Below are positions 258 to 16,519 of a stretch of DNA of 64,000 nt, piece by piece (the first letter of the stretch is position 1; each line of letters opens with the position of its first letter). Both the position numbers and the translations under genes were made by a program. A model generated the notes under the pieces. It saw only the letters and a list, made by a program, of their open reading frames with translations, did not search any database and was not told where the DNA came from. The stretch is from a virus (taxonomy: Duplodnaviria; Caudoviricetes), in the IMG/VR virus record IMGVR_UViG_3300049472_000168, positions 1 through 64,000 of that record; one strand, written 5' to 3'.

Positions 258-811
258 TGTCCTTGATTAAGTATATCAACCAGAACCGAGACATCATGGC
301 TGCGGCTGGCCCTCTAGCCGCAGAGCAGCTGTCTCGGATCCAACCTCTAGCCCTGTACCCAGCGGTGCTCAGGATGACCATTAGAGCCCTCGAAATCTGT
401 AGGTCTAAGGGGAAGGTCTTCTGGATTACTCAAGGCGAGAGGACCTGGGACGAGCAGCATCAGCTATATCTCAAGGGTCGCAGAGGGATTCCAGGTGAAG
501 GCAAGGTGACAACGGTCGATGCCGGAGACAGTGCCCATAATTATGCAATCGCAGTAGATGGCGTTTTTGACAAGGACCCGTCAAAAGGGTTGCAGCCGTC
601 CTGGGATAAGACCGATATCAAGATTTGGGCCGATGCCTGTATTGAAGTCGGCCTAGATGCTGGATATTATTGGAAAAACTTCTTCGACGGCCCCCATGCC
701 CAGCTAGATGTGGGATCTGTAGGAATCAGTCCGAGGAAGCAGTTGAAGTCTGTATATGCCAAAGGCGGCAAAGAAGCCGTTTTTGCGGTTCTTGACAAAT
801 ATAATTGGTAA
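257..811 (+). CDS. Endolysin, M15 family (L-Ala-D-Glu peptidase-like)
   Basis: GERTWDEQ..LY.KGR, SAHNYAIAVD and DGPH motifs; ATG at 257 coupled to upstream stop. Confidence 0.85.
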   Translation: MSLIKYINQNRDIMAAAGPLAAEQLSRIQPLALYPAVLRMTIRALEICRSKGKVFWITQGERTWDEQHQLYLKGRRGIPGEGKVTTVDAGDSAHNYAIAVDGVFDKDPSKGLQPSWDKTDIKIWADACIEVGLDAGYYWKNFFDGPHAQLDVGSVGISPRKQLKSVYAKGGKEAVFAVLDKYNW

Positions 812-824
812 CAATCTTAAAGAC

Positions 825-1196
825 ATGTCTACACTCATCGCAGCAGTATCGAAGGCCGTAACCACAGCAACAGCTAGCGGTGTACTCACCGTAGACTCGA
901 CGACTCCGATTTGGCCGGGTCAAATCGGCTGGTTGTCGAAGACTGGACAGACCTCGTTAAGGATTCAGGTAGTCGAAATCATCTCGGCCACCACCTTCAG
1001 GGCCAGAGCGATTCCTGTGATTTCTGGCGACAACTTTGCAAAATTAGGTCCACAGGCTGCTGGAACCGCGAGTCCGGCGGGATATCCGACCAATTCGTTC
1101 TCAGACCTCTCGGCCTTTACGACTTCGGGTCAGTTCGACGCTGAACCTCAGGTTGTTGGTGACAACTCTGACGGCGGCAAGCTAGTCAGAGCCTAA
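825..1196 (+). CDS. Hypothetical, probable virion structural protein
   Basis: Thr/Ala/Gly-rich beta-type sequence; ATG preceded by AATCTT motif. Confidence 0.55.
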   Translation: MSTLIAAVSKAVTTATASGVLTVDSTTPIWPGQIGWLSKTGQTSLRIQVVEIISATTFRARAIPVISGDNFAKLGPQAAGTASPAGYPTNSFSDLSAFTTSGQFDAEPQVVGDNSDGGKLVRA

Positions 1197-15569: not shown

Positions 15570-15609
15570 TGTTTTCCTCTTCGTTTTGGGTTCCAGATCT
15601 GGAACGATG

Positions 15610-15737
15610 TGGAGAAGGATGGAATTGCACCACCGCTATCAGCTTGGATAAGATAATTATCTTCGCGGGGTCCGTGAAGGACAAAGATTTGAAGACAACG
15701 ATTTTGTGCCGACGTGCTACTACTACACAACTTCTCC
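15610..15737 (-). ncRNA. tRNA-shaped Y-RNA-like element A
   Basis: Acceptor GGAGAAG/CUUCUCC-A; D arm GUGU-AGUAGUA-GCAC; stem UCGGC/GCUGA enclosing a ~65-nt Y module; T arm GGUGG-UGCAAUU-CCAUC. Confidence 0.8.
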
Positions 15738-15746
15738 TAAAGTACC

Positions 15747-15813
15747 GCACCCCGCCCCGTATCGGAACCGATATTGGGAAACTACACACCCTTTAAAAGA
15801 TGTGCGGAGGTGC
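15747..15813 (-). ncRNA. Three-way-junction structured element within the ncRNA array
   Basis: GCACC../..GGUGC closing stem with hairpins GCACAUCUUU/AAAGGGUGUGU and UAUCGG/CCGAUA. Confidence 0.45.
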
Positions 15814-15815
15814 TA

Positions 15816-15875
15816 ACGAAATGCAAAGCCCGCCAGGGTTTGTAACCTGCTAAGGAGTCGAACCTTAGATTTCGC
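15816..15875 (-). ncRNA. Permuted (YrlA-like order) tRNA-mimic fragment
   Basis: GCGAAAU/AUUUCGU stem enclosing T arm CUAAGG-UUCGACU-CCUUAG, then a loop-closed acceptor-like hairpin CAGGUU-ACA-AACCCUG. Confidence 0.55.
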
Positions 15876-15877
15876 TG

Positions 15878-15996
15878 TCGCGACCGCTGGAATCGAACCA
15901 GCTCTACTATCTCCAAAAGATAACCGCCTTCAGTTGGGTCCTTGCGGACAAAAATCGAAGCCGGGTTTAAGTGTGCTACCGTTACACTACGTCGCG
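15878..15996 (-). ncRNA. tRNA-shaped Y-RNA-like element B
   Basis: Acceptor CGCGAC/GUCGCG-A; D arm GUGU-AACGGUA-GCAC; T arm GCUGG-UUCGAUU-CCAGC; Y module with GUCC-GCAA-GGAC at the anticodon position. Confidence 0.8.
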
Positions 15997-16000
15997 TAAA

Positions 16001-16057
16001 GAGGACAAAATCGATGCCGGTGTTTTCTAAGCATGATAAACCGACATCAGGGTCCTC
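16001..16057 (-). ncRNA. Minimal free-standing Y-RNA-like element D
   Basis: GAGGAC-CC-UGAUGUCGGU-UUAUC-loop-ACCGGCAUCG-AUUUU-GUCCUC; same module as A/B/C in non-permuted order. Confidence 0.75.
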
Positions 16058-16058
16058 C

Positions 16059-16191
16059 GGTGGAGATGGTTGGACTTGCACCAACGTCCTCGTCTTTACA
16101 ATGAGATAACTATCTTCGATTGGGTCCAAAAAGTTAAATGGACAAAAATTTGAAGACAGATTTTCGCGCTCTGCTACTGAGCTACATCCCC
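16059..16191 (-). ncRNA. tRNA-shaped Y-RNA-like element C (Ala-like acceptor)
   Basis: Acceptor GGGGAUG/CAUCUCC-A-CC; D arm GCUC-AGUAGCA-GAGC; T arm GUUGG-UGCAAGU-CCAAC; Y module insert. Confidence 0.8.
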
Positions 16192-16220: not shown

Positions 16221-16249
16221 AACCTAAACTATTTGATGGATTTTGTCAA
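16221..16249 (-). promoter_or_regulatory. sigma70-type promoter for the Y-RNA array and rsr
   Basis: TTGACA-17 nt-TAGGTT, ~30 nt upstream of element C. Confidence 0.7.
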
Positions 16250-16519
16250 GTCTTTTATTGTTTGGATGATATAACAGATGTCTTTTTCTTCTCCGACTTC
16301 TTTTTCTGAAGACCAAGAGAAATCGATACAATAATTGTCAGACCCCATGCAATCTCCTGCTGGAGAAAAGAATACCGGGATCTTGTCCCATTGTTCCTTT
16401 TCGACACATTTTTTCACATGGTCTAGAACAGAGATAAGATGCTCTTTGAGAGCTTTCTTTTGTTGAGCAGCTAAATTAGCTGGAGTAGTCTCCAATAATG
16501 TCTCAAGAGGATTTTTCAT
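16229..16519 (-). CDS. Hypothetical protein
   Basis: ORF downstream of recA. Confidence 0.55.
   Translation of the reverse strand: MKNPLETLLETTPANLAAQQKKALKEHLISVLDHVKKCVEKEQWDKIPVFFSPAGDCMGSDNYCIDFSWSSEKEVGEEKDICYIIQTIKDLTKSIK

Follow-up and report, generated by a model that had tools for sequence, protein, structure and literature searches.

The gene of a Ro60 protein (rsr) on a phage contig is preceded by three elements, A, B and C, that resemble tRNAs. One of them, element C, had been noted for carrying alanine identity determinants but no anticodon, and the question raised by this locus is whether element C is a Y RNA that can be charged with alanine. The window (the whole stretch of DNA analysed) is the first 64 kb of a 138,265-bp IMG/VR viral contig, whose completeness was estimated with CheckV at 84%. 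Among public sequencing runs this DNA was found in one DNA run, a freshwater sediment metagenome that is probably the source; no RNA run was listed. The genes around rsr are those of phage replication (DnaB-like helicase, Toprim, RecA-like ATPase, DNA polymerase III alpha). On the minus strand the order is an ORF of 96 aa and unknown kind (16519..16229), some 620 nt with no convincing ORF, and rsr. The latter starts 40 nt downstream of element A on the same strand, so that the same-strand rsr neighbour typical of YrlA RNAs is present. The coordinates are collected in Table 1.

Table 1. Features of the rsr region, numbered from the first letter of the window
Feature	Position	Strand	Evidence
rsr gene, Ro60 protein of 539 aa	13950..15569	-	Pfam TROVE 9.9e-35, vWA_Ro60 8.6e-58
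Element A, tRNA-shaped Y RNA; GGAGAAG/CUUCUCC, A3-U70, A73, variant T loop	15610..15737	-	Rfam tRNA 38.0 bits; R1 107.7 bits
Element B, tRNA-shaped Y RNA; CGCGACG/GGUCGCG, C3-G70, A73	15878..15996	-	Rfam tRNA 32.7 bits; R1 113.5 bits
Free-standing linear mini Y RNA between C and B, starting 5 nt past A73 of C	16003..16055	-	sequence
Element C, tRNA-shaped Y RNA, from G1 (16191) to discriminator A73 (16061)	16061..16191	-	Rfam tRNA 40.7 bits; R1 113.9 bits; consensus fold
C, encoded C74 C75; next base G, terminal A not encoded	16059..16060	-	sequence
C, acceptor 3' strand CAUCUCC, U70 = 16064	16062..16068	-	sequence
C, T arm GUUGG-UGCAAGU-CCAAC, position 55 G instead of U	16069..16085	-	sequence, tRNA model, consensus fold
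C, putative Ro60-binding (Y) module replacing the anticodon arm	16110..16159	-	consensus fold; Ro60 binding inferred from likeness to Y RNA stems (PMC4201824)
C, D arm GCUC-AGUAGCA-GAGC, no GG in the D loop	16168..16182	-	sequence, tRNA model, consensus fold
C, acceptor 5' strand GGGGAUG, G3 = 16189	16185..16191	-	sequence

The preliminary description had given element C an acceptor stem GGGGAUG/CAUCUCC with a G3-U70 wobble, a discriminator A73, an encoded CC and no anticodon, and had stated that A and B lack the wobble. All these points were confirmed by the sequence, the tRNA model and ARAGORN. Read from 5' to 3', the 131-nt RNA consists of GGGGAUG, UA, the D arm, a G, a 2-bp remnant of the anticodon stem, the insert, the variable loop AGGAC, the T arm, CAUCUCC, A73, CC and a G. 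The acceptor pairs are G1-C72, G2-C71, G3.U70, G4-C69, A5-U68, U6-A67 and G7-C66, and G3.U70, A73, G1-C72, G2-C71 and G4-C69 of the alanine identity set are thus all present. With the Rfam tRNA model (RF00005, gathering score 29) all 71 of 71 model positions were aligned, and a 72-nt insert was placed where the anticodon arm should be; the matches of A, B and C each span 71 positions and have inserts of 61-72 nt at this place. The 7-bp acceptor stem, the D arm and the T arm stand in tRNA order and show compensatory changes in all three helices. In the consensus structure of seven elements, 17 of the 28 pairs were supported by compensatory change. The canonical elbow, with U54-U55-C56 in the T loop and G18-G19 in the D loop, is absent from element C, whose loops read UGCAAGU and AGUAGCA. 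ARAGORN found neither a tRNA nor a tmRNA in the window and left element C uncalled also when introns of up to 120 nt were allowed, indicating that element C has no anticodon stem-loop.

In element C the insert forms two helices separated by an internal loop: one of 8 bp (CUGUCUUC/GAAGAUAG) and one of 4 bp (GUCC/GGAC), the latter closed by a 12-nt loop. The strands of the insert run CUGUCUUC … UUUGUCC, loop, GGACCC AAUCGAAGAUAG and are followed by a conserved GUUAUC; the motif AUCGAAG lies inside. The inserts of A and B fold in the same manner, into two helices of 8 and 4 bp with an internal loop between them and a closing loop. The Ro-binding motif of YrlA is GNCGAAN0-1G, and where element C has AUCGAAG the bacterial homologues have GCCGAAG. 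By its likeness to the Ro60-binding stem of Y RNAs with a CGAA-type motif (PMC4201824; PMC12135203), the insert would be such a stem. The two strands of the module are joined by a loop at the very end where ordinary Y RNAs carry their 5' and 3' termini. In the mini Y RNA between C and B the module strands occur in the opposite, open-ended order (GGACCC … UUUUGUCC).

Two other structures were seen on the minus strand of this region. The segment between B and A (15747-15875) contains a lone T-arm-like hairpin, CUAAGG-UUCGACU-CCUUAG, and further structured sequence; it has no Ro module and no model matched it. Just 5' of the Ro60 start codon (15576-15605) there is a hairpin GUUCC-AGAUCU-GGAAC followed by CCAAAACGAAGAGG. 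It resembles half a Y module and takes in the ribosome-binding site, and a close relative of the locus (L097; loci are designated by L numbers) has a counterpart in the same place, GUCC-loop-GGACCCAAACAAAGGAG. The hairpin may be a site at which Ro60 represses its own translation.

Since element C is so close to a tRNA, the insert could be taken for an intron and the element for an ordinary tRNA-Ala gene whose transcript is spliced to a decoding tRNA. Like tRNA-Ala and alanine minihelices, element C has a GGGG/CUCC top with G3.U70 and A73, and its D stem (GCUC/GAGC) and variable loop (AGGAC) are similar too; moreover, ARAGORN found nine ordinary tRNAs on the 138-kb contig and no tRNA-Ala. However, element C differs from tRNA-Ala in having no anticodon arm, a T loop UGCAAGU with G55, no G18 G19 and only CC encoded. 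An intron-tolerant search gave no call, no alanine anticodon occurs in a 7-nt loop context, and the insert, far shorter than group I introns, is a conserved module common to A, B and at least 150 elements that have other acceptor stems and always lie by Ro60. We therefore give the intron reading practically no weight.

The arrangement of element C was compared with that of published Y RNAs. YrlA (Rfam RF02553) has been described as a circularly permuted tRNA; a loop closes its acceptor stem, and it "lacks a free CCA end" (bioRxiv 10.1101/312249; PMC4201824). It shares with element C the position beside rsr, tRNA-like D and T arms, an acceptor-like stem, the absence of an anticodon loop and a CGAA-type Ro helix. 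The two differ in that YrlA has its RNA ends in the Ro-binding stem and a closed acceptor, whereas element C has an open acceptor and a closed Ro-binding helix. The order acceptor 5' strand, D arm, closed Ro module, T arm, acceptor 3' strand is not the permuted order of YrlA. With the YrlA model element C scored only 15.2 bits (E=5.4), below the gathering score of 69, and no YrlA match was found in 20 related loci. A permuted reading of A, B and C, in which acceptor strands of neighbouring elements would pair with each other, was rejected: these strands are not complementary. The three elements have different acceptor stems, and the 5' strand of each finds a partner only in the 3' strand of the same element, some 120 nt downstream, which excludes this reading.

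An open acceptor end on a Ro60-bound RNA has a precedent. In Mycobacterium smegmatis, YrlA is cleaved by RNase P and CCA is added, so that a 7-bp acceptor stem, as in element C, and a free CCA end, as predicted for element C, are present, and the authors remarked that this RNA 'could potentially be aminoacylated' (PMC4201824). The cleaved YrlA, unlike element C, consists of two pieces that arise by cleavage of the closed loop, while element C is one piece in tRNA order; no alanine determinant is reported for M. smegmatis YrlA in the accessible part of that paper. Yrn1 of Deinococcus radiodurans resembles element C in having a D-like arm before a T-like arm and in being bound by Rsr, but its Ro-binding stem is located in the acceptor-stem place and not in the anticodon-arm place (PMC4201824). 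Element C thus represents a third arrangement, in which the parts follow each other as in a genuine tRNA, the acceptor stem is open and the Ro module occupies the place of the anticodon arm. That Y RNAs can have tRNA-like domains was already known, and possible aminoacylation had been mentioned for one cleaved YrlA. In the literature searched there was no description of a non-permuted, one-piece Y RNA in tRNA order or of its conserved alanine-type acceptor end in the 7-bp or 8-bp form, and on Y RNAs in connection with aminoacylation or AlaRS, or on tRNA arrays in connection with Ro60, nothing was found beyond Chen 2014 and Wang 2018. Chen et al. (PMC4201824) dropped hits that overlapped tRNA genes arranged in tandem, and YrlAs were scarce among the delta-proteobacteria and cyanobacteria in their survey; the tRNA-shaped form may have gone unreported for these reasons.

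To see how far this arrangement extends, the covariance model R1 was built from seven elements and run over 80 viral and 80 GTDB loci collected with the Ro60 alignment (about 7,900 Ro60 homologues were found). R1 gave 164 matches of at least 95 nt beside Ro60 genes. Nearly all are on the Ro60 strand, and an array has six elements at most. Besides phage contigs, the sources are four or more bacterial phyla, with matches in Chloroflexota, Armatimonadota, Myxococcota/Polyangia, Verrucomicrobiota and proteobacterial MAGs. In 148 distinct sequences of the genome set 96.3% of the cells were paired and 27 of 28 pairs covaried (score 0.549 vs 0.165 for shuffled alignments), figures that lean toward the structure because the alignment was fitted to R1; the helices of the Y module were kept with compensatory changes in these sequences. 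In 20 related loci all Rfam matches to the family elements were with the tRNA model (37-56 bits) and none with YrlA. Taken with the fold described above, element C is very probably a real tRNA-shaped Y RNA.

All further counts refer to 155 distinct elements from 79 loci in which at least six of the seven acceptor pairs are formed. In this set G-1 was present in 58 of the 63 elements with C73 (p=1e-27). The co-occurrence of the two bases means that the acceptor stem is 8 bp long in 58 of the 155 elements. In six of the 8-bp elements (L113:3671, L141:4618, L188:943, L196:2285, L206:2279, L230:2218) CCA follows directly. An eighth pair G-1:C73 with CCA directly after it is the tRNA-His identity set.

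A variant T loop UGCAAKU, with G55, was found in 12 elements, in the window (16069-16085 and 15618-15634, minus strand) and in L203, L207, L209, L227, L250, L260, L153 and L096. Ten of the 12 also have a D loop without GG, vs 5 of the 143 others (p=1e-10), and the two changes form a covarying tertiary pair at the elbow. This covariation argues that the L-shape is kept although U55 has been lost. Elements with G55 cannot receive pseudouridine 55.

The surroundings of the arrays were inspected as well. No conserved partner gene was found next to them. At one Armatimonadales and one Chloroflexia locus the neighbours of Ro60 were unrelated housekeeping genes (ThuA, PdxS, RecR, MFS, AlkZ-like), and no aminoacyl-transferase was among them. 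In some Polyangia, delta-proteobacterial and other MAGs (L253, L249, L214, L185, L184) the Ro60 gene is located inside a dense tRNA array; in L253 there are up to 30 tRNA genes in 6.6 kb, with tRNA-shaped Y RNAs interspersed among them. A search of viral contigs with Ro60 peptide words yielded no close relatives. The pattern TTTGTCC..GGACCC..GAAG matched 87 loci in viral contigs, of which only L042 contained a tRNA-shaped element, and the rest look like chance matches; a stricter pattern gave four chance matches in apparent coding regions of metagenome contigs and no R1 hit. The L042 element (773-908, plus strand; 40.8 bits), on a GC-rich viral contig, is tRNA-shaped, with acceptor strands CUGGGGA/UCCCCAG, A73, encoded CCA and a different 78-nt insert. 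Shortly downstream of it lies a 465-aa ORF that contains a TROVE-like motif, and there is a Y-module-like hairpin on the opposite strand (636-668, minus).

The G3.U70 pair is the major determinant recognized by alanyl-tRNA synthetase (AlaRS), and together with A73 it suffices without an anticodon, in minihelices and in tmRNA. A wobble with G on the 5' side was counted at acceptor pairs 1 to 7 in 4, 18, 24, 1, 3, 0 and 5 of the 155 elements, respectively, counts that ignore kinship. A73 was present in 19 of the 24 elements with G3.U70 vs 41 of the 131 others (p=1.7e-5, kinship ignored); 19 elements have the form GGGG…CUCC-A, and nearly all cases of G3.U70 plus A73 begin and end in this way. The second peak, at pair 2, has a related structure: 17 of the 18 elements with G2.U71 possess G-1, C73 and A74 (p=1e-13, kinship ignored). 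In the 8-bp stem of these 17 elements the G.U once more occupies the third position from the end, and the tails after the stem are ACCA (14), ACCC (2) and ACCG (1). In all, 36 of 155 elements (23%), from 24 of 79 loci, have G.U as the third pair counted from the acceptor end, with an unpaired A after the stem and, in most cases, CC or CCA next to this A.

The sequence around the wobble is also kept. An Ala-type alignment was made of 14 seven-bp elements from Armatimonadota, Chloroflexia, Polyangia, a proteobacterial MAG and two viral contigs. Their mean column identity was 63%, yet G1-G4, U70, C71 and A73 were invariant and C72 was present in 13 of 14 (U in one), while pairs 5-7 and the T stem varied with compensation. 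We know of no natural tRNA-Ala that has an 8-bp stem with G.U as the third pair from the end, and for this reason the 8-bp class is not a plain relic of tRNA-Ala. In Armatimonadota the array has a fixed order, the 8-bp Ala-type element, the 7-bp Ala-type element, an element of the gAAGAGCG type and rsr, and this order of Ala-type and non-Ala-type elements would fit a division of labour. The 19 seven-bp Ala-type elements all lack a fully encoded CCA, which 17 of 48 ordinary tRNAs of the same loci possess; CCA must therefore be added, as in M. smegmatis YrlA. The clustering of wobbles at the third pair and the fixed GGGG/CUCC-A point to selection for a feature that is read by AlaRS and measured from the 3' end, and on this comparative evidence the alanine determinant is probably under selection in the family.

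It has to be considered that the tRNA frame is only a scaffold, providing a stable fold and a signal for RNase P and 3'-processing, that G3.U70 in element C has either been left over neutrally or arisen by chance through a C-to-U change, and that charging of the RNA never takes place. Punctuation of the tRNA type is plausible where tRNA-shaped and linear Y RNAs alternate and ordinary tRNAs occur in the same arrays. The alternation is seen not only in the window but likewise in L097, with linear RNAs at about 133-207 and 349-404. In addition, CCA is incompletely encoded and 113 of the 155 family members lack the alanine mark. A mere scaffold would, however, leave unexplained why third-pair G.U wobbles pile up in both the 7-bp and the 8-bp register and are linked to an unpaired A. 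Nor would GGGG/CUCC-A be expected to stay nearly fixed while other parts of the helix change, for a neutral wobble should drift to G-C or A-U.

The scaffold reading draws further support from the elements closest to C, where the wobble is absent from the nearest relatives and the mark is rare among viral copies. Only 2 of the 41 elements in viral contigs are of the Ala type, vs 34 of the 114 in cellular genomes; all three G.U wobbles in the viral-contig elements are at pair 3, and none is at the other six pairs. The closest relatives of the Ro60 protein (67-68% identity) are encoded by two short contigs, L096 and L097, both with tRNA-shaped Y elements upstream of rsr. Among the four such elements visible, in contigs that end about 450-530 nt upstream of rsr, none has G3.U70, and the likely positional counterpart of element C (L097:4-126) has G3-C70, A73 and an encoded CCA. 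A single C-to-U transition turns G3-C70 into G3.U70. No other Ala-type element shares the variant elbow of element C (G55 together with a D loop lacking GG). G3.U70 in one of three elements could be chance, while its recurrence across 155 homologues, judged from the alignments, does not look like chance. Conservation of G3-U70 in homologues, which had been proposed as a check, was borne out in the wider family (36 of 155, with neighbouring pairs compensating) and not in the visible elements of the two nearest relatives or in most phage copies (2 of 41). The same division applies to the proposal of an aminoacylatable Y RNA: the determinant is conserved in the family, but the mark is a minority state in phage copies and was not seen in the nearest relatives. 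All things considered, the scaffold reading is possible though rather unlikely for element C, and the aminoacylatable Y RNA is a well-supported hypothesis.

Some other genes were seen in the two related contigs (L096:2347-4040; L097:2117-2441 and 2468-2998). An HNH endonuclease gene is located downstream of Ro60 in both, an AcrVA2-like gene is also present in both, and L096 has an IS605 OrfB/TnpB-like gene. In L097 rsr is immediately followed by four ordinary tRNA genes, and some 1.1 kb downstream there is a fifth.

We lean slightly towards the reading in which element C is a Ro60 partner Y RNA built on a full tRNA frame and alanylated by the AlaRS of the host. For alanylation of element C in vivo, taken by itself, the chances appear to be even; that some Y RNAs of the family are loaded with alanine is probable. 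According to this reading the three elements and the linear Y RNA, which lie just upstream of rsr on the same strand, would be co-transcribed with it. No convincing terminator was found between the elements. The promoter TTGACA-17-TAGGTT put forward earlier was missing from the output of a sigma-70 scan, and its -10 hexamer matches at only three of six positions. RNase P and the 3' trimming enzymes of the host would cut out the tRNA-shaped pieces and thereby free the linear Y RNA between them, and the encoded CC would be extended to CCA by the CCA-adding enzyme of the host. Neither a CCA-adding enzyme nor AlaRS nor RtcB was found on the 138-kb phage contig (84% complete), so maturation and charging would rest on host enzymes. 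The closed helix in the anticodon-arm place would bind Ro60, so that the elbow and, at the opposite tip of the L, the free acceptor end would remain accessible. Charging of element C with alanine by the host AlaRS would then be most likely, because the end is GGGG/CUCC with G3.U70 and A73 and because AlaRS ignores the anticodon.

The charged or chargeable end would be the effector end of the RNP. Our best guess is that charging would shield the 3' end of the RNA from the 3'-to-5' exonucleases that work with Ro60 particles, an idea already voiced in PMC4201824, and that the charged end might tie Ro60 to tRNA-handling proteins. Y RNAs are known as tethers between Ro60 and an effector such as PNPase, for D. 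radiodurans and for the Ro60 of phage phiLo (PMC4201824; PMC12135203). This precedent would suit a role for element C as an uncharged decoy or tether: AlaRS or some other protein that binds tRNA (a nuclease, a modification enzyme or a tRNA-targeting toxin) would attach to its alanine-type end and be either recruited to Ro60 or titrated during infection. Mimics without an anticodon would escape anticodon nucleases, and in some MAGs Ro60 genes do lie within large tRNA gene arrays. We nevertheless regard this role as improbable, since an RNA with G3.U70, A73 and a CCA end is expected to be charged and not merely bound, and no partner gene is conserved beside the arrays.

The preliminary description went further and proposed that alanylated element C binds EF-Tu and enters ribosomes in the manner of tmRNA, carrying Ro60 with it. 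The tRNA-like domain of tmRNA indeed shares with element C the missing anticodon, a G3.U70 acceptor, which in tmRNA is charged by AlaRS, and a T arm, and the acceptor and T stems of element C are intact. Element C, however, lacks the tag reading frame and the pseudoknots of tmRNA, which also depends on SmpB; it carries a Ro60 module instead, was not called as tmRNA by ARAGORN and has no stand-in for SmpB. A 60-kDa ring at the anticodon end is unlikely to fit the decoding site; Ro60 in this position is probably too large for the 70S A site. Furthermore, the acceptor stem is 8 bp long in 58 of the 155 family members, and in tRNA-Sec an 8-bp acceptor stem goes with exclusion from EF-Tu. The analysis gave no support to delivery of Ro60 to ribosomes through EF-Tu, and we consider this model highly improbable. 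A variant of it would be a subclass of Ro60 RNPs with alanylated Y RNA that acts on the translation machinery, via EF-Tu or directly on a split 50S subunit with a stuck nascent chain, by tagging the peptide with alanine. On a free 50S subunit an RNA with no anticodon and with the Ro60 ring in its place would not clash with the 30S decoding site. We think it very improbable that such a subclass exists. If it did, Ro60 surveillance would be coupled to alanine tagging of peptides, a protein-plus-RNA analogue of tmRNA or of RqcH with tRNA-Ala.

The role of the tRNA-like half of bacterial Y RNAs has been a question since 2014. In the published view YrlA RNAs mimic permuted tRNAs with a sealed end and are not chargeable; the elements described here connect the same two modules in the reverse manner, which leaves a normal tRNA end. 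About a quarter of these RNAs, from several phyla, keep the exact acceptor top of tRNA-Ala, including the shifted 8-bp form, and this makes aminoacylation of Y RNAs directly testable. If element C and its relatives are indeed charged, they would be the first amino-acid-bearing Ro60 cofactors and would connect RNA quality control with the charging machinery in a new way, and phages would carry this Y RNA system into their hosts.
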